64,000 nt of DNA from an uncultured Chloroflexia bacterium (GTDB lineage: Bacteria; Chloroflexota; Anaerolineae; CG2-30-64-16), in the NCBI GenBank assembly GCA_963810095.1, contig CAWEMM010000007.1, positions 256,001 to 320,000 of the forward strand. Direction: 5' to 3'. A model generated the notes under the pieces. It did no database searches. It was not told where the DNA came from and was given only the letters and a program-made list of their open reading frames with translations. Every line of letters starts with the position of its first letter. Position 1 is the first letter of the stretch. Position numbers and translations under genes: made by a program. This document shows positions 1-13,500 of the stretch, piece after piece.

Positions 1-1
1 G

Positions 2-1157
2 GCGCGGCGCTGGGGCTCGCTGGCGTTCGTACTCGCACTCGCCTTCGGGTTCGCACTCGTCCTCGGGCTGATTGGGCTGGCAACCAGAGCCGAAGCGCTC
101 CCGGTTGACCCAGCGGCGCTCGACGGCATCGAAGCGCCGCCGGTGCTCGGCCATACTTTCTACGGCACAGTCAAGAACTCCCAGGGAACCTCGCTCCCCA
201 ACGGCACGACCGTCATGGCCAAGGCAGCCAGCGGAGCGTGGACGGGCAGCGTGAGCACGAAGGTCGGACCGCCAGACGCCAACTCGGGCTATTTCGTCGT
301 GACCGTTCCTGCCGATGATCCCGACACGGGCGCTGTAGACGGCGCGACCGCAGGAACGCCGATTATCTTCTACGTTGCCGGCGTTAAGGCGAAGATCTAT
401 GATGTCGCGCAAGCCAAGTTCGTAGACAGCTATCCCTGGAAGTCGGGTGACTCGACGAACCTGAACCTCCAGGCCGACGTGAACTACACGATCACGGCCT
501 CGGCCGGGGCCGGCGGAACGATTGACCCATCGGGCAGCGTCTCGGTGCCTCTCGGAGGCAGCAGGACGTTCACAATTTCCGCCAACGACAGCTATGCCAT
601 CGCGGACGTGGTCGTCGATGGGACGTCCAAAGGCGCTGTGGGTACGTACACGTTCAGCAACGTCACATCAAACCACGCCATCGCGGCCTCGTTCGCCGCG
701 GACGACGGGTGACCTCGCCGGTTACGTCTTCCTGGACGGCAACGGGAACGGCGTCCGTGACGCGGGAGAAGAAGCCGGGCTGGTGGGCGTGACGATCACG
801 TTGCTCTTGCCAGGGGGCGGCACGCAGACCACCTTGACGACCGGTGCAGAGGGTGGCTACCTGTTCGGCGGCCTTGCCCCGGGCCAGTACACCGTGCAGC
901 AGACGCAGCCGCCCGGATACGCCAGCACCAGCCCGGATTCGGTGGTTGTGGCGATAACGGCCGGCAGCCAGGCGCAGGTGAACTTCGGCGAGCGGGCCTG
1001 GACCCCGACGCCTTCGCCTACGTCCACGGGCACGCCGACCGGGACGCCGACGTCAACCCCAACCGTCACGCCGACGGCGACTGCGACGGCCACGGCCGAG
1101 CCGAGCAAGCAGATCAGAGTCTACCTACCGATTGTGATACTACCGCCGGCCCAGTAG
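2..1157 (+). CDS. Secreted surface protein, 5'-truncated: signal peptide, N-terminal beta domain, divergent InlB-B-type repeat, SdrD-B-like domain, PT linker, C-terminal VYLPIV tail. Frameshift near 705-712.
   Basis: Frame +2 from nt 2 reads a hydrophobic signal (WGSLAFVLALAFGFALVLGLIGLA) into ORF 143..712 (YTITASAGAGGTIDPSGSVSV...NHAIAASF). ORF 522..1157 continues with GYVFLDGNGNGVRDAGE...GYLFGGLAPGQYTV, PTPSPT repeats and RVYLPIVI. Confidence 0.7.
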
Positions 1158-1249
1158 GCAGGGTCGGGGCAGGCATGCCGCGTGCACAAACTGGGCCACC
1201 GCGGTATGCCTGCCGTGTGCGTCCGTCACATCCGTGTCGGGAGGACACC

Positions 1250-2237
1250 ATGAGGCCACTGCATTTAGTCATCATCGTCGGAACCTGCAGCCTCCTGTGG
1301 GCGGCCGGCGCAACCGGCGTGGCCGCGCAACCTCCCTCTCCTCCACATGCCTTCTTCGGGGCAGTCACGATTGATGGCCAGCCGGCGCCGGCCGGGACGG
1401 TGATCGAGAGTCGTGCGGAGGGCGTTCTTACCGGCATCCCGGGCAATCCGATCACGACGACCGAGTTGGGGCGGTATGGCGGACCGATGGTGCAGGAGCA
1501 AAAGCTGATCGTGCAAGGGCAGGTTGCGGATGGGGTGGTGTTGGTGTTCTATGTCAACGGGAGCCCCGCTCGCTGCGCGGCGCCCGGCGGCGACTGGCAG
1601 GACAGCTATCCGTTCCAGTCGGGCGGTGTGACTCCACTCAGTCTGAACACGGGGCGAGCGCCTGCAAATCAGCCTTCCGCTTCTCCCACTGAGACGCCAG
1701 ACGCAGCGCCGCCAGGCACAGGTGCCGGCAGCTCGCCGACCGCAACGCCCCGGTCCCCTCGCGCGGGACCGGAAGCTCCCGCGGCGACCGCAACCCCTGC
1801 CCGGCCCGAGCCGCGGGTACAAGCGTCCGCAGCCCCCACCATCCGCCAGGACCCCACAGTCGAGCCTCCTTCAGGCTCGGGCGCGAGCGTGCCGGCCGTC
1901 AGCCCTGCGCCCGCCCGCCCATCTGTAACAGCGGGTTCGCCGGCGCGAACCGCAGAACCCGTGGCGGTCAACGACCCAGCGACTCCGCTTGGCGACGCAC
2001 AAATTGCCGGCGGTACGCCCGCAGCCGCAGTGCAGGTTGCCGCGGTGGTTCGTCCGACGAGCACACCTTTGCTGCAGGCCGGGCGCGTCACCTCCGCGTA
2101 CGGCGACGCCTGTGGCATCATCATCCGGGTCGCTCGGGGTCGTCCGCCACCTACCCACCCTGGCAGCGGCCTCGTTCCTCGGCGCAGCGATTGCGCTCGT
2201 CGTGTTAGCCGTGCGGCGACTTCGGCCGGGCGGGTGA
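1250..2237 (+). CDS. Secreted Pro/Ala-rich protein with a domain paralogous to the upstream gene and a C-terminal TM anchor. Frameshift near 2090.
   Basis: GGAGG RBS then ATG 1250; signal peptide; PPSPPHAFFGAVTIDG...FYVNG...SYPFQSG. C-terminal TM plus basic tail (LAAASFLGAAIALVVLAVRRLR) lies in ORF 1989..2237. Confidence 0.6.
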
Positions 2238-2409
2238 CGCCCGAGCCGTCCTGCTGCCCAGCGACCGCACGCAGCTCCTCCGCCTCGTCCCGCCTCGACC
2301 GGCGCGGCCTGCACCCCGGCGGGTGCTCCCCGCGCGCAGGCCGGTCGGCCCCTTGGCAGCGGGTAGCGGCTGGTCTATAATGGCGCGACCCTGGCCCACG
2401 AGGACTGCC

Positions 2410-3156
2410 ATGACCGCTCTCGTTCGTCCCTACCAACCGGCAGACCGCGCTGCCATCCTCGCGATTTCAGCCGATACGGCCTATTTCGGCGATCCGGTGG
2501 AAGCCTACCTCGAGGATCGCCGTCTTGCGCAGGATTTCTTCGTCTCCTACTACCTGGACCACGAGCCCGAGCACGCGTGGACGGCTGAAGCGGACGGCGT
2601 GGTCGTGGGTTACCTGACGGGCAGCGTCGGTGGGGCGAGCGCCTCGCAGTTGAAGACCAAGACGGTGCTGCGCGCGGGGGTCCGGCTGGCCACGTTCCAG
2701 TACCGTCTCGGTCCGCTCTCTCGCCGCTACGCGCTGCGGGCTGCCCGGGCCGCGCTGCTTGGCGAGTTCCCAAACGTGGACCTGAAGCAGTATCCGGCCG
2801 AGCTGCACATCAACCTGTCCGCGGCCGCCCGGGGCCTCGGCCTGGGGAAGAAGCTGCTGTATGCCTGTCTCGACCAGATGACTGCGCTGGGTATGCCGGG
2901 GATCCATCTCAACACGACCTCGCGCAACGGGGCGGCGCTGCGTCTCTACGAGAAGGCCGGGTTTGAGCTGCTGGGCCGGCACGTATCAACGCTGTGGGAG
3001 CCGTGGCTGCCGGGCGAGGCGGTGGAGAACCTGGTGTACGGGAAGCTGCTCTGCGCGGGCGAGGCGCCCAGCGGTGTGCCCGCCGCGAAAGATTCCACGG
3101 AGGAGGCAGGCGCGCTGCCTGTCTCGACCGGCCCGGACAAACAGGGACGCCCGTGA
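2410..3156 (+). CDS. GNAT family N-acetyltransferase
   Basis: VRPYQPADR start; ELHINL...ARGLGLGKKL acetyl-CoA motif; N..ALRLYEKAGF. Confidence 0.85.
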   Translation: MTALVRPYQPADRAAILAISADTAYFGDPVEAYLEDRRLAQDFFVSYYLDHEPEHAWTAEADGVVVGYLTGSVGGASASQLKTKTVLRAGVRLATFQYRLGPLSRRYALRAARAALLGEFPNVDLKQYPAELHINLSAAARGLGLGKKLLYACLDQMTALGMPGIHLNTTSRNGAALRLYEKAGFELLGRHVSTLWEPWLPGEAVENLVYGKLLCAGEAPSGVPAAKDSTEEAGALPVSTGPDKQGRP

Positions 3157-3184
3157 TCGAGCTTGCGCTTCGCCGTGCCGCTCG

Positions 3185-4456
3185 TCACGGCACGTTCTGG
3201 ATTTCCTGGAGCTTCAGGATCGCGCCCGCGTAATCCTTCCGGTCGATCGCAGCCTTGGCGTCGGCCGCGAGCGCCTCGATGCGCTGCTGGCGCAGTTGTT
3301 CCTTGGTCGGCAGGTCAAAGATGCGGCCGTCGTCGGCGCGCATGAAGAGCACGGGCGTGCCCCATTCGGTCGGGCTGCTGGTGAACAGCTTGTTTCGTGT
3401 ATCGGTCAACGCGCGGTCGACCGCATAGCCCCGCGCCAGCCTCTCGTAGAAGGTGGAGGCGAACAAGACCGCGGCTTTGTCGGTGATCCTGAACTGCATG
3501 GCAACCGCCGCAGGGATGCCTCCCCGCACCAACTGCTGCGCCATGCCGGCAAACGGATCGCGCGTGCCCGCCTCGGCCCCGTCGCACGAGTTCAACACGG
3601 CCAGGCGGAGCTTGTCGCAGCGCAGCAGCTGTGAGAGCAGCAGGTCGCCGCCGATCTCCTCCCGGCCGCCCGCGTCGTCTTCGAAATACAACACACCTTC
3701 ATCCTCACCGGGGGTGGCTCCCGCAACCAGGCCACCATGCCCGATGTAGTGGAAGATGTGATAGACGTTGGGTTCGTCCAGGTGCTCGGCCAGCTCGTCG
3801 AGCGTGCCCTTTTCGATGATATCGACCTCGGCCAGGTTCTCCGCCTTGAGGTCGGCGAAGGCATTCTGGATGTTGCGCGCCTCGGTTTCGCTGTCCAGGC
3901 CGGTCAAGCCGCTCGGATTGGCCATCATCACCAGCACCCGGATCGGCAGCGGCGTGGTCACCGACAGGACACGCTGTGGGATCTCCATGAAGCGCACGAC
4001 CGGGGTCTCCTTGAAGATGGAGAGGTGGCGCGAGGCGGTCCGGTTGTAGAGGTACTCCCAAGGGACCTCCGCCACTTCCGGCGCATCCTGTAACCGCAAG
4101 CGAATCCGTAGACCCGAGGGTCTGTTGCTGTCCGCTTGGACCGCGTTCACACTGCTTTCAAAAACGCTTCTGACGTTGCCTACAAAGACGGCATCGAACA
4201 AGCGCTCGCCGAAGAGCCGCACCTTCGACCGGTAATCTGGCTTGGACCCGCCGATCATTTGGCCCGGCCGCCGCGCGTCGCGGGCCGGCCCCTCGACGAG
4301 GGCGCGCAGCTCGGCGATTTCCGTCGCCGTGAAGGGCCACTCCACGTTCGCCTTGCCTTGACCGCCCTTCCCATCCGCCGAAATGGAGTATCCCGCCCCG
4401 CCGTCAGTGCGTGGGGAGATGGTCAGATCGAAGTTCCAGTAATCTGACTCGGCCAT
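3185..4456 (-). CDS. CHAT domain protease (caspase/HetF clan CD) with short C-terminal helical TPR-like segment
   Basis: LRIRLRL...EVPWEYL, RVLVMMANPSGL, HIFHYIGHG (catalytic His), LAVLNSCDGA (catalytic Cys), GIPAAVAMQF, EWGTPVLF. RBS AAGGAGG precedes ATG 4456. Confidence 0.9.
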   Translation of the reverse strand: MAESDYWNFDLTISPRTDGGAGYSISADGKGGQGKANVEWPFTATEIAELRALVEGPARDARRPGQMIGGSKPDYRSKVRLFGERLFDAVFVGNVRSVFESSVNAVQADSNRPSGLRIRLRLQDAPEVAEVPWEYLYNRTASRHLSIFKETPVVRFMEIPQRVLSVTTPLPIRVLVMMANPSGLTGLDSETEARNIQNAFADLKAENLAEVDIIEKGTLDELAEHLDEPNVYHIFHYIGHGGLVAGATPGEDEGVLYFEDDAGGREEIGGDLLLSQLLRCDKLRLAVLNSCDGAEAGTRDPFAGMAQQLVRGGIPAAVAMQFRITDKAAVLFASTFYERLARGYAVDRALTDTRNKLFTSSPTEWGTPVLFMRADDGRIFDLPTKEQLRQQRIEALAADAKAAIDRKDYAGAILKLQEIQNVP

Positions 4457-4466
4457 GGAAGCCTCC

Positions 4467-6503
4467 TTAGCGCTTTCGGCGGAGCTCAAACGCCCGATCG
4501 ACCGCCAGCCACTCCTGCTCGGGCGGGAGTTGTACGGGCTTGAGTTCGCGCCGGCCAACGCCGGTGAGCGCCATGTCGAGCAGTTGCCACAGCGCGGTGC
4601 CCTCACCCTGGCTGCTGTAGATGCCGCGACCCCCTTCCTGCAGCACCAGCCGGCCCAGGTCGGTCGGGTACACGGTGGCGAAGAGCTTCAGCGTTTCGAC
4701 GCCACCCACCTCCTGATCGTCGTCCGCGGCGCCATCGCGATGGAACTCGTCGGGCAGAACGAGCTGCATCTCGAGGCCCGGCTCGGCCCACAGCCGCACG
4801 GTGCCGTTGGGCGGAATCTGCTCGGATGCACCTTCGCTCGGATAGACCATCGACACGCTCGAGAAGAAACCAAAGTCGAGGACGCCGACCCATATCGGCG
4901 CCGAGTGCTTGTTGACGATCTCCAGCGCGACTTTGTCGTCCTCATGAAAGACCGGGATGCCGTCCTGGCGATCGGCCTCGGCCCGGGTCCAACGGCCGTC
5001 GGCGCGCTTTCGCATCACCGAGAATTGCACTTTACCGGCCAGGACGCTGTCGGGATTCGGGTTACGCAGCCCCAGAATGTTGCGGTAACGCGACAGGCTT
5101 TCGAGTTGATCCCGCACCTCGTACGCGCTGCCCGAGCCGGCCGAGGAGACGGGCGCCATGACGAGACGGGCCGTGCGGTCGACGAGGACCCACGTCGGCT
5201 CGGCGATGGCGCTCAGTTGGGGCGCAGGATCGTCGGGCGCCGGCGCGCCCCGCGGAAGCAGCAGGTGGACCGTGACGTCGGGCACATCTGCGTCGGGTTG
5301 CCCTTCCGCGAGCCGGAGGAGGTCTGAGCCGAGCACAAGTTTCGTGAGCTCGTCGCCGGGCCACGGCAGGTCGGGCGGGGTTTCGATGCGTACACTCAGC
5401 TTCATCTCGCCAAAGAAGTGGGCCTCCTCCAGGGCAATCGCGGCCGGCTGAATGCTCGCACGGGCGGATTCCGAAAGCACCCTGGCATCGGCCTCGGTAG
5501 CCCGTACGCCCGTGATCTCCACCAGACCAAGCCGCGGCGTGTCGGGCGAGACGGCCAATGCTTCGGGAGGATAGATGGCCCATTGCGACCTGACCGTCGC
5601 ACCCTGGGCCGCGCCCACCCCCAGCACGACGCGATCTTCCACACGCTGCCTGACGGTGACGCTGCGCGCTGAAGCGGCTTCGCCGGTGGTGAACAGCGGC
5701 GCGTCCGCATCGCCGATCACCTGGGGGTGCTGGTAGGGGATGCGTGACGCCACCAGAACGCTCGCCCGGGTCCACACGTCCCGGTATGTTTCGCCGGGCT
5801 TGGCTTCCGTCAGCGCCTGCGCCACGTAGTAGGTCAGCGCACCCTGGTAGACGCCCGATGCGACCAGGAACTCCTCACAAATCTCGTCGGCCCGGCTGGC
5901 GCTGATGGCCACGAGGCTCCCCGCCGATTGTGGGCTTGCCTCGAGCAGGCCGCCAGAGTAGGGCGCGTCAAAAATGAGCACGAGGTTGCGATCGACAGCA
6001 CGGGCGGCCCAAGCCATGATCTCGTCCCCCAGCAGCAGGTTTGCTGCCTTCGGGTCCCAATCGGACGACAACAAGGCGCTGAGCATCTCGTCCGGCGGGT
6101 TTTCGCGGGGCGTCGTCTTTGCCTGGACGTAGCTGCCGGGCGGGACAAAGGACTTCCTCCCCGGGTAACCGTCGCGGATTGGCGAGGCCCAGGGCACGAC
6201 GATGCGTGCCGGGTCGGAGGTCCCCTTGGGCGCCCGCGCACCCCAGCCCGAGAAATGGACGACGACCACTTCGCCGGGGTCGCTCACCGCCAGCAGGCGA
6301 TCGAGGCTCGCGAGGATCGCCTCGCGGGTTGCGTCCGCGTCCACTAACCGGCGAATGTTCGCGCTGGAGAAGCCGAAGCGCGGCAGCACGCTGGCCATGA
6401 GTTGGACGTCGTTGACACAGCCCCGCAGCGGCGGGGCGGAAGCATACCTGTCAATGCCGATTAACAGGGCGTGGCCGCTGGTGCTTCCCGCTATCGTGGG
6501 CAT
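4467..6503 (-). CDS. Caspase-family (peptidase C14 fold) protein with degenerate catalytic dyad and long C-terminal extension (DUF4384-like region)
   Basis: HALLIGIDRY...LRGCVNDV...ATREAIL...VVVHFSGWG...LIFDAPYSGG...AISAS.ADE..EE...GALTYY...QHPQ is a metacaspase/orthocaspase scaffold. RBS GAGGAG precedes ATG 6503. Confidence 0.85.
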   Translation of the reverse strand: MPTIAGSTSGHALLIGIDRYASAPPLRGCVNDVQLMASVLPRFGFSSANIRRLVDADATREAILASLDRLLAVSDPGEVVVVHFSGWGARAPKGTSDPARIVVPWASPIRDGYPGRKSFVPPGSYVQAKTTPRENPPDEMLSALLSSDWDPKAANLLLGDEIMAWAARAVDRNLVLIFDAPYSGGLLEASPQSAGSLVAISASRADEICEEFLVASGVYQGALTYYVAQALTEAKPGETYRDVWTRASVLVASRIPYQHPQVIGDADAPLFTTGEAASARSVTVRQRVEDRVVLGVGAAQGATVRSQWAIYPPEALAVSPDTPRLGLVEITGVRATEADARVLSESARASIQPAAIALEEAHFFGEMKLSVRIETPPDLPWPGDELTKLVLGSDLLRLAEGQPDADVPDVTVHLLLPRGAPAPDDPAPQLSAIAEPTWVLVDRTARLVMAPVSSAGSGSAYEVRDQLESLSRYRNILGLRNPNPDSVLAGKVQFSVMRKRADGRWTRAEADRQDGIPVFHEDDKVALEIVNKHSAPIWVGVLDFGFFSSVSMVYPSEGASEQIPPNGTVRLWAEPGLEMQLVLPDEFHRDGAADDDQEVGGVETLKLFATVYPTDLGRLVLQEGGRGIYSSQGEGTALWQLLDMALTGVGRRELKPVQLPPEQEWLAVDRAFELRRKR

Positions 6504-6641
6504 GGATGACTCCTCGTTATAACGCTGCGCTCCGCCTGCTGCCGTAACGAGAAACAAGCGGCAGAACTATTCTACACCCATCGGGGCGCCTTTGCGACAG
6601 GCGTTTTTTGGAGGTTACGTCGACGGCAAGCGCCTTAACGC

Positions 6642-6675
6642 AAAGGCACGTCAACACAATCGTGTTCACGTGCCT
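6642..6675 (-). terminator. Probable intrinsic terminator of dedA
   Basis: Hairpin AGGCACGTGAACAC/GTGTTGACGTGCCT followed by a short T run on the minus strand. Confidence 0.45.
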
Positions 6676-6712
6676 GATCGTCCTGATTGATCTGCGGTCG
6701 GGCGCGTCCGCC

Positions 6713-7408
6713 CTAGTCCGAGAGGGCTGCCGGGTCGTCCTCGAGCGCGACTTCGGCCGGAGCGGGCGCCTGGTGGCCCTTGCGGCGTGAGCGTAATGCC
6801 TCAATGCCGATCGGCACGACCGAAATGAGGATGATCGCGACGATGACCCACTCGAAGTGCTCCTTGACGAAGGGAAGGTTGCCAAAGAAGAAGCCCAGCG
6901 CGGTGAAAATGGCGACCCACGTGATGCCGCCGATCAGGTTCCAGCGAATAAAGAAGCCGTAGGACATCTGGCTCGAGCCCGCGACGAAGGGTGCGAAGGT
7001 GCGGACGATGGGCACAAACCGCGCCAGGAAGATCGTCTTGCCGCCATGCTTCTCAAAGAAGGCATGCGTCCGTTCCATGTAGTCTTTGCGGATCCACCTG
7101 ACCTCGCCCCGGTATGCCTTCGCGCCGACCTTGTGCCCGATCCAGTAGTTGACCGTGTCGCCCAGGACCGCGGCCACAGACAGCGTGACAAACACGATCA
7201 AGGCTTTGGACAGGTCGGGCGCGACCAGTGCGCCGGCCGCGAAGAGGAGCGAATCGCCGGGCAGGAAGGGGGTCACGACCAGCCCGGTTTCCATGAAGAT
7301 GATCACGAACAGGATCGCCAAGGACCACGCGCCGTACTGCGCGACAATCTGCTCCAGGTACATGTCGATGTGAAGGACGAAATCGATCACCTGCTGGATG
7401 ATTTCCAC
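6713..7408 (-). CDS. dedA: DedA family (VTT domain) membrane protein
   Basis: IIFMETGLVVTPFLPGDSLLFAAG, FFEKHGGKTIFLARFVPIVRTFAPFVAG. GGAGG precedes GTG 7408. Confidence 0.92.
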   Translation of the reverse strand: MEIIQQVIDFVLHIDMYLEQIVAQYGAWSLAILFVIIFMETGLVVTPFLPGDSLLFAAGALVAPDLSKALIVFVTLSVAAVLGDTVNYWIGHKVGAKAYRGEVRWIRKDYMERTHAFFEKHGGKTIFLARFVPIVRTFAPFVAGSSQMSYGFFIRWNLIGGITWVAIFTALGFFFGNLPFVKEHFEWVIVAIILISVVPIGIEALRSRRKGHQAPAPAEVALEDDPAALSD

Positions 7409-7708
7409 GAACGGTTGCCTCCAGGATCCACGCCTACTTGTCGTGCGCGGATATTTGTCGCTCGCGCGGCGGGCGACATCCGAACGAGTATCCTCTGAAC
7501 CGCCCGCTTCGTCAAGAAAGCTGCCTACCTCTTGCGCAACGGGGTACTTGCCGCGGCGCAACGGACCACCCCGGCGCGCTGAAGCGCTGGAACCCTCGAG
7601 CAGCCGGGCACGTCAGACGAGTACGGGCCGGTGCAGGTGTCGGGCCGGAGGCAATAAGCCTCCCGCAGCTGCAGGGGCCGAAAAATGTATCGAGAGGGAA
7701 GACAGCTG

Positions 7709-8152
7709 ATGATTCGATCGACATTGTTTGTACTTGCGGCCCTGGTGGCCGTGTTGTTGGTGGGGTGCGGTGCGCCTGCATCCAGCGCACCTGCCGTTGC
7801 CACGCCGTCTTCAAGCGGAGCGGAAACCCCGTTGGCCACGCCGGCTGCGGGCCAGTCGCCCGTCGCCACCCCCGCCGCGGGGCAGGCGGGCGCACTCGAT
7901 CCGGCGGTTGCCGATGCGAGCCTCGCCTGGTTGGCGGGGCAAGTGAACGTTCCTGCGGGGGACCTCCGCCTCGTCCAGGCGGAAGCGGCCGAGTGGACCG
8001 ACTCGTGCTTCGGGCTGGGCGGCCCGGCCAAGTCGTGCCTTCAAGCCATCACGCCCGGCTGGCGTATCACCTTCGAGGCCGGGGGCCAGCAGTACGAGGT
8101 GCGCACCGACCAGAACGGCGCCAGTTTCCGGCTCGTCCCTCAAGCAAGCTAA
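7709..8152 (+). CDS. Conserved lipoprotein of unknown function
   Basis: Lipobox LLVGC; VATP repeats; motif WTDSCFG...CLQAITPGWRI...YEVRTD. Confidence 0.75.
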   Translation: MIRSTLFVLAALVAVLLVGCGAPASSAPAVATPSSSGAETPLATPAAGQSPVATPAAGQAGALDPAVADASLAWLAGQVNVPAGDLRLVQAEAAEWTDSCFGLGGPAKSCLQAITPGWRITFEAGGQQYEVRTDQNGASFRLVPQAS

Positions 8153-8176
8153 CGCGGGGCACGCCTTGAACTGAAT

Positions 8177-8218
8177 CAAAGAGCCGGCACACGGACTCCC
8201 CGTGTGCCGGCTCTTTGT
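8177..8218. terminator. Bidirectional intrinsic terminator between convergent genes
   Basis: Perfect stem CAAAGAGCCGGCACACG / CGTGTGCCGGCTCTTTG with A and T flanks. Confidence 0.85.
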
Positions 8219-8249
8219 TGTCTCTTGATGCTCCTTTGGCGGCGAGGAA

Positions 8250-9524
8250 TCAGCCGGCGGACGGCGGGAAAGCCTCTTCGATCAAGCTCACGGCAGCGCG
8301 CACACCATCTTCGCCGCGAATCTTTTCTCCAAGCGCGGCGGCCTTCCGCCGCATTTCCGGCGACCCGACCGCCTCCTCGATGGCATGCGCCAGCGACCCC
8401 GCGTCCAGCTTGCGCCGGGGGATGGGTTTCGTGCCGACGCCCAGTCTCTCCGTGAGCTGAGCCCAGAATGGCTGGTCGCCGTGGAATGGAACAACCACGG
8501 ACGGCAGGCCTGCCCGGAATGCCGCGGCGGTCGTGCCGGCCCCGCCGTGATGGACCGCGGCCGCCATGCGCGGGAGCAGCCACGAATGCGGCACCGAGCC
8601 GACGACGAACACGTTCTCGGGTACCGGCGTCGCCCCTAGACCGGCCCAGCCAGAATGCACGACCGCACGGCGCCCGTGCGCGGCCAGCGCGTCGAGGACG
8701 ACGCGGGTGGTTTGATCGGGCTTCTCGCTGCTCATGCTGCCAAAGCCGATATAGACTGGGACGGGCCCGCCCTCGATGAACTCGACCAGTTCTCGGGGCG
8801 GAGTCCATGTTTCGGGCTCGTCGGCGTACCAGAAGCCGGTCACATGCACGTTCGCCGGCCAATCCGCGGGCCTCGGCAGGACGGCCTGGCTGAACCCGTA
8901 AAGCGTGGGAGCTCTGTTGAAGAGGGGGCTGTCGAACATACCGCGAACCGGCGCGGCGGGCAAGCCAAGCAGGTCCCTGCGCGCGGCGTTGCCCGCCGAC
9001 CGCGCCGCCTGCCAGACCATCTGCCGGGTCAGCCGGTGCGAGAGCCGGTGTGTGAGCGAGCGGGGCCAGAATGACAGCCAGGGGAACAGCGCGCCAGCAT
9101 ACTCCCGGGTGGGGGTCATCGGGACGTTGTAAGCCTGCACGAAAGACAGCCCGAGTTTCTCGGCCAGGGACGCGGCGACAAACATGCCGCCGAAACCCGC
9201 GACGATCACGTCGGCCGTGCGCGCCGCCGTGAGCCCGGCTTCGACCACGAGCCGGGTCCGGGAGGTTGCCAGCTTAGTGAGTTTGAGAAAGGACGTCAGA
9301 AGATTGCCGCCTTCGATCGCAGCGCTGGCGTCTGGCGCCTGCATGGCCGCCTGGACGTTGATGTCGACGGGGCAGACCTCCAGATCGTAGGACCTTACGA
9401 GATCTGCAAACTCGGCATTTGTCAGGAGGCGAACGCGGTGGCCGGCGCGGGCGAGTCCCTGACCCAGTGCGATATAGGGTTGGACGTCGCCTCGGCTGCC
9501 GAGAGCAATGATAAGTACATGCAT
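8250..9524 (-). CDS. GT1/GT28-type glycosyltransferase (sterol 3-beta-glucosyltransferase-like)
   Basis: ALGSRGDVQPYIALG, PVYIGFGSM, VPHSWLLPR.AAAVHHGGAGTT, VPFHGDQPFWA. Confidence 0.9.
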   Translation of the reverse strand: MHVLIIALGSRGDVQPYIALGQGLARAGHRVRLLTNAEFADLVRSYDLEVCPVDINVQAAMQAPDASAAIEGGNLLTSFLKLTKLATSRTRLVVEAGLTAARTADVIVAGFGGMFVAASLAEKLGLSFVQAYNVPMTPTREYAGALFPWLSFWPRSLTHRLSHRLTRQMVWQAARSAGNAARRDLLGLPAAPVRGMFDSPLFNRAPTLYGFSQAVLPRPADWPANVHVTGFWYADEPETWTPPRELVEFIEGGPVPVYIGFGSMSSEKPDQTTRVVLDALAAHGRRAVVHSGWAGLGATPVPENVFVVGSVPHSWLLPRMAAAVHHGGAGTTAAAFRAGLPSVVVPFHGDQPFWAQLTERLGVGTKPIPRRKLDAGSLAHAIEEAVGSPEMRRKAAALGEKIRGEDGVRAAVSLIEEAFPPSAG

Positions 9525-9586
9525 AGGACGGTGACAGAGCTCCTTATTTGCAGGACATTCGACTTTGCCGATCCTACCGCAAATAT

Positions 9587-9616
9587 TTGGAATTGTCAAA
9601 GCATTGTATTATAATG
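9587..9616 (+). promoter_or_regulatory. Sigma70-type promoter for tetR overlapping a candidate TetR operator
   Basis: TTGGAA(9587)-17 bp-TATAAT(9610). Imperfect palindrome CATTGTATTATAATG (9602-9616) in the AT-rich divergent intergenic region. Confidence 0.55.
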
Positions 9617-9645
9617 ATTACAGTATTTGGCCTGAAGGAGTGGCT

Positions 9646-10260
9646 GTGAGCAACGGGTTCGAACGCCGGAAAGAGCAGAGCAAAGAGGACATCCGCCAAG
9701 CGGCAGCCGAGTTGTTTGCGCAATTCGGGATCGAGCGGGTCAGCATGGCCGAGATCGCGAGGAAGGCCGGGGTATCTCAAGCCACGATTTACAACAACTT
9801 CGGAAGCAAGGACGCGCTCGTGCGGGAGTTCGAGAGCGCAGCGGTGGCAGGGTTAATCGAGGCGGTGGAGCAGGCGTTGGCGCCTGAAATGCCATTCGCG
9901 GAGAAAATCCGCGCGCTTACAGCGTTGATCGGCGGGATGATCGCCGGCGGCCCGCGCATGGATGCGGCAACGACGGTCTTCAACAGCAGCGTGGACTTGC
10001 AGGGCGACCCCGAAATCCGGCACATTCGCAACGCAGCTCATGAGAGGATGACCGCGGTGCTGCTCCGCCTGGCCGGCGAGGGCCGTCAGCAAGGCGAGGT
10101 CAACCCGCGCCTTTCGGACGAGGCGCTGCGGGTCTACTTCCGCGCGTTCATGGACATGTTTATCGACCCGGAACTGCACCGGCGCCTCGCAAGCAGCGGG
10201 CAGTTGAACGAGGAACTGGGGGGCCTGCTGCTCTACGGTCTGCGCGGTCCTCGCAACTAG
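9646..10260 (+). CDS. TetR/AcrR family transcriptional regulator
   Basis: AAAELFAQFGIERVSMAEIARKAGVSQATIYNNFGSKDAL helix-turn-helix. AAGGAG precedes GTG 9646. Confidence 0.92.
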   Translation: MSNGFERRKEQSKEDIRQAAAELFAQFGIERVSMAEIARKAGVSQATIYNNFGSKDALVREFESAAVAGLIEAVEQALAPEMPFAEKIRALTALIGGMIAGGPRMDAATTVFNSSVDLQGDPEIRHIRNAAHERMTAVLLRLAGEGRQQGEVNPRLSDEALRVYFRAFMDMFIDPELHRRLASSGQLNEELGGLLLYGLRGPRN

Positions 10261-10578
10261 CGAGGCCGGTCGACGCCGTACCTCGCGCCACGCCGGTCTG
10301 CATCGAAGCGAACGGAGACCGGTGGATCGGCACCTTCTTCGCCGCAGCCCTCTCCCGCCACGGCTTCGGCCGCTCACCCTTCCTTCGTGTTCGTCGACCG
10401 CTGAGTAACCCCGGTTCTCGCACACGGACCTTCGCCGAACGTACGGAAAGTGCTAGAATGAAGTACGCACCGCACTGCAGCTCCGCGCTAACACACTTCA
10501 TCGACATCGCCCCATGCGCTGAGAGGCCGACTCATTCGAGGAGGTCGAGCACCATTCACAGCCCGGGAGGGGACCGCG

Positions 10579-13500
10579 ATGGGACTAATGAGTCATCATC
10601 CTGCCGAGACCGTGTTGTGCCGGTGGCGCACGGGAATCCTAAATGGTTTTCTGATTATTGCCGCGGTGATCGCAACAGTCATGACCGTTGCGACGGCGAT
10701 GGATGCACGGTCGAGCCCCGAGTTATGGCGGGCGGTCGTCGTCTATCTGGTCCTGGCCGCGGCGTTGGCGGTGTTGGCCGTCTTGCGACAAGTCGCCTAT
10801 CCCATCCGCGCGTGGGGCCTCTTGATCGTGTGCGAGGCCGCAGGTTTGGCCGCACTGGCAACTTTTGGTCTCGGCAGTGCCGGACGGCTTTATCTGCTGG
10901 CAGTCCCCATTCTCGCGCTGATTCTGATCGGCGAGCGCCCGGGCATGATTACGTCGGCGCTCAGCGTGCTTATCCTGGTGTCATTCGACGATCATGGCCG
11001 GCACCGGTGCGCTGAGCCTGTTCCTGGTGCGGTGATCGCAACTCCCTTCTGGTGGCCGATTGGCTCGCCGAGTTCTCCGATACCCTTGGCATCCTGGGCG
11101 CCGTAATGGTGCTGCTCGTGCTCTTCTACCGTTTCCAGCAACGCATGATCGGCAGCGAGCGAGCCGCGCAGACAGAACTCGCCGACGCCCACAGACTGCT
11201 GGAAGAGCAAAACGTGATGCTGGAGCAGCAGGTACAGCAACATCTTGCGGAATTGCTGGTGATCAACGACGTCCAAAAGGCGCTTGCCTCGAAGCTGGAC
11301 GTCGACGCGATCTATGAGCTGATCGGAGAGAAGGTCCAGGAAGTCTTCAAAGTGGACGTCGTCGATATCGCCTCCTTCGATTCCGTTGCTAACTTGATCT
11401 CCATGCCCTACTCTTACGAAAAAGGCGACCGGAGTGTCATAACGTCCCGGCCTCCGTACGGTTTTCGGCTTGAAGTCATCAACACGCGCGAGCCTCTTCT
11501 GATCAACCGCGATTTCGACACGCTGGCCTTGCAGCATGGCAACCCAACCCTCAGCGGCGCGTCTCCCAAATCAGCATTGTTTGTGCCCCTGCTGGTCGAT
11601 GGCCAGGTTAAGTACATCCTCTCCATTCAGGATCTGGAAAGAGAGAACGCGTTTGGGGAGTCTGACGTTCGCACCTTGCAGACACTTGCCGTCACGATGA
11701 GCATCGCGCTGGAAAATGCGCGTCTGTTTACCCAGCTGGAACGCGAGAAAAAGCTGTCTGAAACGCTCATCCAGACCAGCCCTGTGGCCATCGTGACGCT
11801 CGACAAGGACAACAAGGTCACCACGTGGAATCCGACGGCAGAGAAGCTATTCGGCTACACCCAGACGGAGGCGCTGAGCAACAGCTTCGTCGAACTGGTG
11901 ACCCAGGGAGAGATGCGCGCAGAAGCGCTGGACGTTGCCCGCCGGATGTCACAAGGTGAGTCAGTCCACATGCTCACGCGCCGCGTGACGAAGGACTGGT
12001 CGAGAGGTCGACGTCGAGTTGTTCGCCGTCCCAGTCTTCCTGGAAGAGGACCGCGTGGGCACGTTTGCCATGTATCACGACATCACCGAGCTGATGCGGG
12101 CAAAGGCGGCCATCCAGGAGTCGGAGCGCCGGCTGGCGGACATTATCGACTTTCTGCCCGATGCGACGCTGGTGATCGACGCTGAAGGCAAGGTGATCGC
12201 CTGGAACCGTGCGATAGAGGAATTGACCGGTGTTCCTGCTCAGGAGATGGTCGGCAAGGGCAATTACGAATACGCACTTCCCTTCTTCGGCGAGCGCCGG
12301 CCGATCCTGATCGACCTCGTGCGCCTACCCCGCGATGAAATCGAGCAGAATACCTCGCGCCTGCAGTGGGTCGGGAACACGCTCACGGAGGAGTTCGATA
12401 CCCCCGCCTTAAACGATGGCGGGCGTTACCTGTACGCCACGGCCTCACAGCTCCGTACCGCGGAGGGGTATGGCGGCGCGATCGAGACGATCCGCGACAT
12501 CACGGAGCGCAGGCGTGTCGAAGACGCGCTGCGCGAGTCGAACGAAAAGCTGCGCCTGATATTCGAGAATGCGTTCGATGGGATCAGTATCTACGAAGAG
12601 ATGCCGGGCGAAGACAGGCGCGCCCTGGTGGACTGCAACGAACGATATTGCGAGATCGCGGGGCGGAGCAAGGCGGAACTGCTGGCTATCGGCGACACCC
12701 GCGTTATCCAGTGCAGCATCGAGAATGCGCCGGACGAAGTGGATGAGGCGTCCGTGCTGGCCCAGCACGCTTTCTCGGGGCTCTTCTCGTGGATCAGGCC
12801 CGACGGCAAAGACAACGTCGTCGAGTACAACGCCGCGCCGATTCGTGTGGGCGACCGGTACTACACGATCGGCCTGGATCGCGACGTCACAGAGCGCAGG
12901 CGCGTCCAAGACGCGCTGCGCGAGTCGAACGAAAAGCTGCGGCTGATATTCGAGAATGCTTTCGACGGGATCGATATCTATGAGGACCTGCCGGACGTGG
13001 TAGGAAAGCGGATCCTGGTCGACTGCAATGAGCGCTATTGCGAGATGGCCGGACGCAGCAGAGAAGAGCTCATGTCTGCCGAAAACACGACCGTCTTTCA
13101 ACAGCTTGTAACAGACGACTGGGCGACAACCAATCGCGCCTTGGTCCAGAAAGGAGAGGCCTTTCAGGGGCTCTTCTCCTGGATTCGGCCCGACGGGAAA
13201 GAGAACATCATCGAGTATCACGCTGCGGCAACCCGGCTCGGGGACCGGTTCTTCACCATCGGTCTGGACCGCGACATCACCGATCGGATTCACGCCGAAG
13301 CAGAATTGGAGAGCCGCGCGGCGATTGCCGAGCAGGCTAACCAGGCCAAGAGCGCCTTCCTGGCGAACATGAGTCACGAGCTCCGCACGCCGCTCAACGC
13401 CATCATCGGGTTCACCCGCATCGTCCGGCGCAAAGGGGAGGGTGTGCTGCCGGAGAAGCAGATTGAAAACCTCGACAAGGTGCTCGTTAGCTCGGAACAC

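Follow-up and report, generated by a model that had tools for sequence, protein, structure and literature searches.

We identified a two-gene module of clan-CD proteases in a 64,000-nucleotide stretch of DNA from an uncultured Chloroflexia bacterium (assembly GCA_963810095.1, contig CAWEMM010000007.1, positions 256,001 to 320,000; this whole stretch is referred to below as the window, and positions are counted from its first letter). Two minus-strand open reading frames (ORFs) fill positions 3185-6503. The upstream one, gene 1, encodes a protein with a caspase fold that has lost both residues of the catalytic dyad, and the downstream one, gene 2, encodes a short CHAT protein that is predicted to be a live protease. 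Gene 1 is a maintained pseudoenzyme under purifying selection, which belongs to a dead lineage of single, old origin, and both the linkage and the coupling of this dead caspase with a clade of minimal CHAT proteins are conserved. We propose that the two genes form a conserved, translationally coupled module in which the dead caspase most likely serves as a non-catalytic partner of CHAT, i.e., a regulator or sensor that gates the live protease; judged from sequence, we regard this reading as somewhat better than evenly probable.

Loss of the catalytic dyad in the caspase-fold protein

Multiple alignment of the gene 1 family gave the consensus motifs HYSGHG and DxCHSG, at which the window protein has HFSGWG and FDAPYSG, placing Trp87 and Pro181 in the columns of the catalytic His and Cys, respectively (Table 1). 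A first-pass annotation, made from the DNA sequence alone, had reported these two motifs and their codons and had attributed them to multi-base substitutions and not to an indel artefact. Both statements were confirmed: three base changes are needed to convert CAY (His) to TGG and two to three to convert TGY (Cys) to CCC, and the ORF is uninterrupted, containing neither a frameshift nor an internal stop. Profile searches, which had been suggested as a check of these residues, detected PF00656 in gene 1 (E 1.8e-14, 54.5 bits with a cut-off of 21.4, aligned over residues 10-93 only) and PF12770 in gene 2 (E 2.5e-23, 83.4 bits with a cut-off of 24). The PADLOC caspase profile matched residues 11-307 of gene 1 (E 3.6e-21).

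The protein has the caspase-hemoglobinase fold of Peptidase C14 and lacks its catalytic His and Cys. A pseudo-orthocaspase is defined by a p20 domain in which one or both dyad residues are replaced and by the lack of a metacaspase-type p10 (PMC6426788); gene 1 was assigned to this group on its two replaced dyad residues, with the orthocaspase and metacaspase types not being formally distinguished in this assignment. The acidic S1 pocket of pseudo-orthocaspases is present in the form of Asp32 and Asp179. For Asp32, the pocket role rests in part on what we take to be the corresponding motif of TbMCA2. Aspartates of this type are held to form an S1 pocket for basic residues and are kept in pseudo-orthocaspases generally (PMC6426788).

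An AlphaFold (AF2) model of gene 1, built with a 35-row alignment, was compact (predicted local distance difference test, pLDDT, 82.3; predicted template modelling score, pTM, 0.85), with low confidence only at residues 1-7, 108-137, 191-193, 589-596 and 623-629. Its architecture comprises, in addition to the caspase-fold domain, a pair of small beta domains, a sandwich resembling DUF4384 and a C-tail that is conserved. The top Foldseek matches, obtained via the N-terminal domain, were metacaspases (8a53, E 1.9e-10), and MALT1 was also detected. The loop following the dead His has a length of 50 with the insertion that is specific for the clade of the window protein, as opposed to 12, and pLDDT falls below 50 at residues 108-137 of this insertion.

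The C-terminal two-thirds was compared with DUF4384 in several ways and is tentatively called DUF4384-like. PF14326 (DUF4384) gave weak matches in 23 of 35 family members (E<=0.05; best E 2.2e-5, below the cut-off) and none with the window protein itself at E<=0.1. A protein-language-model atlas placed residues 281-678 nearest to a cluster named DUF4384 (score 0.94), and a PDB sequence search with the same residues returned no match at E<=1. Among the papers searched, those that mention DUF4384 include, to judge by titles and abstracts, no functional study of it.

The CHAT partner is a minimal, predicted active protease

The presence of a CHAT protein with an intact dyad 10 nt downstream, as originally noticed, was borne out by comparison with a characterized enzyme. 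A profile of CHAT homologues aligned with SAVED-CHAT (8tl0) with E 1.4e-19, and its HFIGHG and LNsC motifs fell on the equivalent motifs of 8tl0 (HFIGHG, NAC). The SAVED-CHAT dyad, H375/C422, is essential by mutation (Steens et al., bioRxiv 10.1101/2023.06.23.546230); numbering of the 8tl0 chain is offset from these positions by 20 for both residues (counted by hand). The dyad of gene 2, His240 and Cys291, is therefore found at the positions of a validated CHAT enzyme, and the protein is predicted to be a live protease.

Pfam searches with the CHAT protein detected only CHAT and a weak C25 match, with no SAVED and no TPR, and the PADLOC SAVED_CHAT profile covered only the CHAT part (residues 171-375). 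In the AF2 model (pLDDT 83.9), residues 7-54 form a three-stranded beta domain and a helix, residues 56-71 a disordered linker and residues 385-420 a helical hairpin at the C-terminus, with the CHAT core between linker and hairpin; the fold matched SAVED-CHAT 8tl0, separase 5fby and Csx29. The initial description of a protein with almost no sensor domain was right with regard to repeats, which are lacking, but it missed the small N-terminal beta domain and helix. Most of the best 120 CHAT homologues carry large C-terminal additions, such as TPR, TIR/SEFIR, WD40 and FGE-sulfatase; the 16 short CHATs nearest to the query form a single sensor-less clade (FastTree, support 99).

A GPARD motif in the disordered linker is conserved among these 16 minimal CHATs (G in 16, P in 15, A in 14, R in 16 and D in 15 of them). 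The remaining 104 members of the broad family, which shares the N-terminal beta domain, have another Arg-rich linker motif, one Arg of which is present in 99 of 104, and GPARD replaces it in the sensor-less clade. To judge from its sequence, the linker motif (window 4268-4291), whether Arg-rich or GPARD, may be a processing or regulatory site.

An old dead lineage within an active family

A word-index search retrieved approximately 40 full-length relatives of gene 1 of roughly 680 aa, and an exhaustive profile search, which covered 1.84 billion representatives, revealed a considerably larger family, of which the best 150 representatives at 50% identity were examined. The dyad was H/C in 138 of these, substituted at one or both positions in nine (P0007, WP; P0194, ES; P0305 and P0323, QN; P0331 and P0018, LS; P0250, LC; P0276, HD; P0348, QG), and the other three were fragments. 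The closest clusters, P0003-P0007 (54-58% identity), together with P0187 and P0190, all have HFSGW[GS] and DAPY[SA]G, and W/P is common to all eight clade members at 54-61% identity. Several other family members, including P0030 and P0224, are 1126-1274 aa in length and are fused to long extensions at the C-terminus; for one of these, a match to DUF7379 (PF24096, E 2.5e-52) was obtained.

Phylogenetic analyses placed all 12 short-linker dead sequences in one clade of a 52-row tree (Shimodaira-Hasegawa-like approximate likelihood ratio test, SH-aLRT, 98), with the substituted P0250 and P0018, both of which keep the linker, as successive sisters. In a 65-row tree, W/P and E/S sequences were grouped with a support of 100. 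Both trees were quick searches under LG+G4 with ∼690 columns. The dead sequences are monophyletic, so that catalysis was lost once, long ago, and the dead lineage is, on sequence criteria, nested in an otherwise active caspase/DUF4384-like family of ∼680 aa. Within it, the dyad is replaced by WP, ES, LS, QN, HD or QG, and the dyad positions drifted between subclades, yet they are fixed within each. In addition, the linker between p20 and p10 is 5-14 residues long in the dead lineage versus 45-71 in active members, i.e., a segment of roughly 50 aa is missing from all 12 short-linker dead sequences.

The pattern of conservation is that of a protein under constraint. Within the W/P clade, identity is 0.57-0.61 in the dead domain, 0.57 in the middle and DUF4384-like domains, highest (0.74) in the C-tail and lowest (0.33) in the clade-specific insertion. 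Comparison of contigs from four sequencing runs listed 31 differences, 2 in the spacer, 22 synonymous and 7 non-synonymous (22 of 29 coding differences being synonymous), with the counts resting on single low-depth contigs that can carry errors. These four runs were low-depth DNA contigs, and no RNA dataset was present among the 20 matching sequencing runs. A loss of function restricted to this copy, with close homologs that retain H/C and with relaxed selection, had been considered in the first-pass annotation; instead, the closest homologues share W/P, conservation is even, and the differences are mostly synonymous.

A further possibility is that the W/P protein hydrolyses its substrates via other residues, such as His83 or Cys209, in which case the operon would encode two live proteases. 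His83 and Cys209 are invariant in a six-sequence W/P alignment. However, the sister dead clades with the same CHAT partner (E/S, LS, QN, HD, QG) conserve neither residue. The dyad columns have drifted freely throughout the lineage, as expected once an enzyme no longer catalyses, the acidic motif that follows the His has been replaced, and the linker has been deleted. We consider such a non-canonical enzyme very improbable.

The dead caspase and the minimal CHAT are inherited together

Good Shine-Dalgarno sites precede both start codons, and the one of gene 2, GGAGG, overlaps the TAA stop codon of gene 1, which indicates translational coupling of the two genes. A contig from an unrelated sequencing run (record 28), approximately 86% identical, also spans the gene 1/CHAT junction. 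The same arrangement was found in G015, a genome of the same family and another genus, in which the dead lineage is represented by a protein of 644 aa (YYSGEIA / IDASHSG, E/S) and the gene directly after it encodes a minimal CHAT of 419 aa. In this relative, which is 45% identical, the junction has the layout of the window, with TAA, 10 nt containing GGAGG, and ATG.

Beyond G015, pairing was inferred from identical sizes of the longest contig reported for a pseudo-caspase and a minimal CHAT. Seven such pairs were identified, five of which involved W/P proteins: P0007 with CHAT P0066 (longest contig 13085), P0003 with P0069 (7766), P0005 with P0192 (19882), P0187 with P0070 (5263) and P0190 with P0067 (11779). 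The other two were the LS protein P0331 with P0072 (19103) and the QN protein P0323 with P0127 (141297). As a control, 48 contigs listed for family members that do not belong to the short-linker clade (47 active members and the L/S protein P0018) were compared by hand with those of the CHATs, and only one size match was detected, 61596, which is the G015 contig. Altogether, evidence for a partner was obtained for 8 of 13 dead-lineage clusters (90% identity) and 8 of 16 minimal CHATs. The order of partners in the two trees is congruent: the CHATs of W/P partners form one clade, the CHAT of the LS partner belongs to a neighbouring clade, and those of the ES and QN partners are placed together further out. 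Pseudo-caspase and CHAT therefore appear to co-diverge as far as these sequences tell. The search for co-occurrence of substituted caspases with CHAT neighbours, suggested at the outset, was answered positively by the adjacent pair of G015 and the seven same-contig pairs, and the G015 junction and congruent partner trees speak for a conserved pairing.

These data also bear on the idea that gene 1 is simply a recently inactivated paralogue drifting to loss, with CHAT as its neighbour by coincidence. The genome contains seven caspase-domain and ten CHAT matches, making chance neighbours conceivable, and its second CHAT plus caspase locus looks frameshifted. Such decay is nevertheless contradicted by the intact ORF, the conservation of W/P at 54-61% identity, the even conservation of domains, the predominance of synonymous variants, the age and monophyly of the dead clade, and the junction with CHAT that is kept in a relative at 45% identity. 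We rejected this explanation, which is scarcely credible.

Possible roles of the dead caspase

Because the two genes are inherited together, the dead enzyme probably either regulates the live one or is cut by it. Of these, a role as a regulator or substrate trap is favoured over that of a cleaved substrate. Gene 1 is derived from the active caspase/DUF4384-like family through loss of the dyad and of the p20-p10 linker, the usual processing region. In the proposed mechanism, it acts together with CHAT. The pseudo-caspase, which keeps the fold, both S1 aspartates and all C-terminal domains, would bind peptides and hold or gate CHAT. A possible route is that its vestigial Arg/Lys pocket binds a basic exposed segment, for example the conserved GPAR-D linker of CHAT. 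A trigger would then free CHAT, resulting in the cleavage of cellular targets. Such a system might operate as a regulated-proteolysis or cell-death (conflict) module of the type that characterizes filamentous Chloroflexota and Cyanobacteria. A physical contact between the proteins, the way in which regulation runs, a trigger and a possible defence function are what we infer from the evidence described above. For inactive caspase domains of bacterial conflict systems, a function in dominant-negative regulation or in peptide binding has previously been proposed (Kaur et al. 2020, PMC7159879). A two-chain structure prediction with full-length CHAT and residues 1-285 of the pseudo-caspase gave a score of 0.00 in both runs, which were made without controls, and provides no evidence either way.

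A more specific and rather doubtful version is that the dead caspase is a substrate-trap receptor, whose Asp32/Asp179 pocket, without a nucleophile, would clamp the GPAR-D linker or a basic peptide of an invader and leave it uncut. If true, this would represent a bacterial safety catch that acts in trans on a sensor-less CHAT executioner. It would also be a role reversal in a two-protease cascade, an executioner caspase having turned into a sensor or regulator of its former activator, and it would provide an independent bacterial example of cFLIP-like logic that extends across two clan-CD families.

Alternatively, CHAT may cut the pseudo-caspase at the LQEGGR-G loop (residues 621-627) or in the disordered insert (100-140), thus freeing the DUF4384-like module as an effector; active relatives would make the equivalent cut themselves or have it made by a TPR-CHAT neighbour. 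We see this as a possible explanation of lesser probability. Model confidence is lowest in the loops at residues 108-137 and 623-629, the remainder of the model being compact, Arg626 and Arg652 are present in 20 of 20 aligned rows, active members included, and the C-tail is the most conserved region. Moreover, active relatives adjoin TPR-CHAT or caspase-repeat genes, an arrangement that resembles the SAVED-CHAT to PCaspase cascade, and DUF4384 is the C-terminal domain of some of the Csx30 proteins that are substrates of Csx29 (10.1101/2022.08.17.504292). However, no toxic or pore-forming domain was recognisable in residues 281-678 by Pfam and PDB searches, and the retained S1 aspartates and the even conservation of the dead domain would be left unexplained. 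Exposed Arg motifs had been put forward in the first-pass annotation as candidate cut sites. EGGRG and, in CHAT, GPARDARR (residues 56-63) are located in low-confidence loops, and VGRRE (residues 649-653) lies in a moderately confident loop. The Arg of the EGGRG loop was also found in most rows of the 65-row alignment. In its broader form, the early suggestion that gene 1 may be the sensor, scaffold, inhibitor or substrate of CHAT is partly supported.

With regard to a coupled module in which the dead caspase gates CHAT, several observations weigh against our interpretation. The conserved Arg loops (R626, R652) also occur in active relatives, and, being family-wide, are not specific to the pairing with CHAT. 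Equal sizes of longest contigs place two genes on one contig and are not proof of adjacency, and 5 of 13 pseudo-caspase clusters as well as 8 of 16 minimal CHATs had no visible partner, most of them being on short contigs. The trees with SH-aLRT supports include the dyad and linker trait columns, a small fraction of the ∼690, and were quick searches. The module is rare: none of seven same-genus genomes contained it, and a search at E<=1e-40 of 400 further genomes sampled from the phylum gave no match. Finally, comparison of 10 flanking ORFs with defence profiles gave no match above noise except one marginal helix-turn-helix. There is thus far no indication of a function in defence or of a mobile island.

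Comparison with known systems

In the survey of Klemencic et al. 2019 (PMC6426788), 858 of the 9,994 orthocaspases from bacteria were pseudo-variants, and only three pseudo-orthocaspases were reported there in green non-sulfur photosynthetic bacteria, the group that includes Chloroflexi. Among cyanobacterial orthocaspases with DUF4384, 19 were true and 4 were pseudo-variants (PMC8283722). Like gene 1, pseudo-orthocaspases have a p20-type caspase fold, a substituted dyad and a preserved acidic S1 pocket (PMC6426788). The dyads catalogued in the body of that survey are YS, YN, YA, FS, QC, HA and YG; W/P is not named among them, and the supplementary tables might list it. The accessible text of these surveys describes neither a gene neighbourhood nor a CHAT partner (PMC6426788, PMC8283722), and the link with photosynthesis proposed by the authors (PMC6426788) receives no support from the present locus.

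In the type III-B CRISPR system of Haliangium ochraceum, SAVED-CHAT and the C14 caspase PCaspase are encoded together, as are the two proteins described here, and SAVED-CHAT cleaves and activates PCaspase (Steens et al., 10.1101/2023.06.23.546230). SAVED-CHAT (8tl0) is also the best PDB match of the window CHAT, both by sequence profile and by fold. However, the window CHAT has no SAVED, and neither cas nor CBASS genes were present among the neighbours examined. Furthermore, the caspase partner is catalytically dead, which makes a second proteolytic step of the SAVED-CHAT type impossible.

Craspase, composed of Csx29 and its substrate Csx30, is another case of a CHAT protease with a dedicated partner encoded nearby. 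Csx29 contains a pseudo-caspase (CHAT1) and an active caspase (CHAT2) in one chain (PMC10028731), and one group of Csx30 C-terminal domains is DUF4384 (10.1101/2022.08.17.504292). In contrast to Craspase, the window CHAT has a single C-terminal hairpin in place of a TPR array, Cas7-11/crRNA is absent, and the partner is a full caspase-fold protein and not a sigma-factor binder like Csx30.

A likeness in logic only is seen with cFLIP and caspase-8 of animals, where, as here, a dead caspase paralogue might control a live protease of clan CD. The two animal proteins are close paralogues, which heterodimerise through equivalent caspase domains and death effector domains. The proteins of the window, in contrast, come from two separate clan-CD families, C14 and CHAT, and show no evident adaptor domain. 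In addition, CHAT enzymes already hold a pseudo-caspase half in cis (PMC10028731), so that a heterodimer of the cFLIP type is unneeded for the active site. Multicellular bacteria, Chloroflexi among them, likewise maintain dead caspase domains in their vWA-MoxR (VMAP) ternary conflict systems, as described in PMC7159879, but these domains are fused to vWA components of NTPase-centred three-gene systems, unlike gene 1.

Our literature search found no description of a pseudo-caspase/CHAT gene pair, with the reservation that the supplements of the orthocaspase surveys may list W/P variants. The individual elements, namely pseudo-orthocaspases, cascades of CHAT and caspase, and dead caspase domains with a regulatory role, were known. 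What was not found in this search is a monophyletic, linker-less pseudo-caspase lineage of the DUF4384-like family that is co-inherited with a sensor-less CHAT clade.

Genomic context and distribution

The features of the locus are listed in Table 1. A convergent GNAT gene, ending at 3156, closes the unit, and on the other side a gap separates it from a VTT/DedA-family gene; a consensus scan upstream of 6503 detected no minus-strand sigma-70-like site. Neighbours within window 1-12185 include SdrD-like, GNAT, VTT/DedA, glycosyltransferase and TetR genes, whereas cas/CBASS, MoxR, vWA and VMAP genes were not present in this interval. PADLOC-DB 2.0 identified no complete system at the locus, with only single-protein matches to generic 'caspase' and 'SAVED_CHAT' profiles. 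Orthologues of the VTT/DedA-family gene (window 6713-7561), 74-75% identical, were detected in two same-genus genomes (G004 and G007), one of them with an in-frame TAG. No other window gene flanks these orthologues, and no clean insertion or deletion boundary could be drawn; the genes around them differ, indicating poor local synteny in the genus.

Table 1. Positions of the two genes and of their main features in the window
Feature	Position	Strand	Remarks
Caspase-fold gene (gene 1)	4467..6503	-	ATG 6503, stop 4469-4467; 678 aa
CHAT gene (gene 2)	3185..4456	-	ATG 4456; 423 aa
Spacer	4457..4466	-	10 nt; Shine-Dalgarno GGAGG overlaps TAA stop of gene 1
Upstream intergenic region, presumed promoter region of the two-gene unit	6504..6712	-	209-nt gap to VTT/DedA-family gene
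Dead caspase (p20/p10-like) domain	5679..6482	-	residues 8-275
Asp32 (GCxND motif), first retained S1-pocket aspartate	6408..6410	-	ND in 15/15 substituted-dyad and 5/5 active rows
Trp87 codon TGG, catalytic His column (HFSGWG)	6243..6245	-	family alignment
W/P-clade-specific insertion after dead His	6084..6206	-	~40 aa; disordered; replaces acidic DExDGxDET of active members
Asp179 (D of DxC), second retained S1-pocket aspartate	5967..5969	-	invariant in family alignment; 20/20 rows
Pro181 codon CCC, catalytic Cys column (FDAPYSG)	5961..5963	-	family alignment
Non-caspase C-terminal two-thirds, DUF4384-like	4470..5663	-	residues 281-678; ~400 residues, beta-rich
EGGRG loop with Arg626	4623..4637	-	residues 623-627; exposed; pLDDT <50 at 623-629
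GPARD motif, CHAT disordered linker	4277..4291	-	residues 56-60; pLDDT <50 at 56-71
CHAT catalytic His240 (YIGHGG)	3737..3739	-	invariant in 19/19 close homologues
CHAT catalytic Cys291 (LNSCDG)	3584..3586	-	invariant in 19/19 close homologues

The caspase/DUF4384-like family was found in Chloroflexota and Cyanobacteriota records. When genome and metagenome contigs were scanned with the W/P alignment, the 4 + 3 loci retrieved were all active relatives (34-40% identity), and an additional W/P locus was not among them. Plasmids contained only distant caspases (23-31% identity over long matches, and at most 50% over an 80-residue N-terminal piece), and phages had no match.

Active members of ∼680 aa adjoin a second clan-CD protease in 8 of 10 loci with usable flanks. 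The neighbour is a TPR-CHAT in three of them (L008:10085-12397; L012:2308-4626 and 5362-7488; L010:76-2670; from Microcoleus and Anaerolineales records), a caspase-HEAT protein in L009 and L045, a 736-aa caspase in L046 and a caspase-TPR protein in L014; the eighth is the G015 cluster. No second clan-CD protease was found alongside the active paralogue of the window genome (L047) or in L013. That the family usually adjoins a second clan-CD protease with TPR or HEAT repeats suggests that two-protease modules may be more widespread than the one characterised example.

In the G015 cluster, two active paralogues of ∼690-715 aa and a 1295-aa triple-caspase TPR protein are encoded upstream of the pseudo-caspase/CHAT pair. 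The gene for the latter protein (L035:12383-16270) is located between the active paralogues and the pair. Its first caspase domain has H/C (ACHG / DTCHS), the second has GHS / DTHST and the third GAGS / DAGWT, and two of the three look dead. The genome of the window has a separate CHAT and caspase locus (G000:C9:550639-553400; L027, L007), in which a caspase gene lies after that of a 380-aa CHAT; the caspase has both SGHG and DSCHSG intact, and its sequence is split between two frames, reflecting either a frameshift or an assembly error. The next protein has GHGSGW and DACLM motifs, which we take to be typical of clostripain (C11)-type peptidases.

Significance

Bacterial caspase-like proteases run immune cascades, such as PCaspase activation through SAVED-CHAT, Craspase, and the caspase-like proteases that are activated by TIR. 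To our knowledge, little has been described of how such bacterial proteases are restrained. The locus described here is a compact, naturally minimised case, with one live protease that has no sensor repeats and one dead protease, and the two proteins have been kept together and have co-diverged across at least six states of dyad replacement. As a two-gene system it could be expressed directly, and it could show whether pseudo-proteases regulate bacterial clan-CD enzymes and what the role of the caspase/DUF4384-like family is, questions that are relevant to bacterial caspase-like immunity and to pseudoenzymes.

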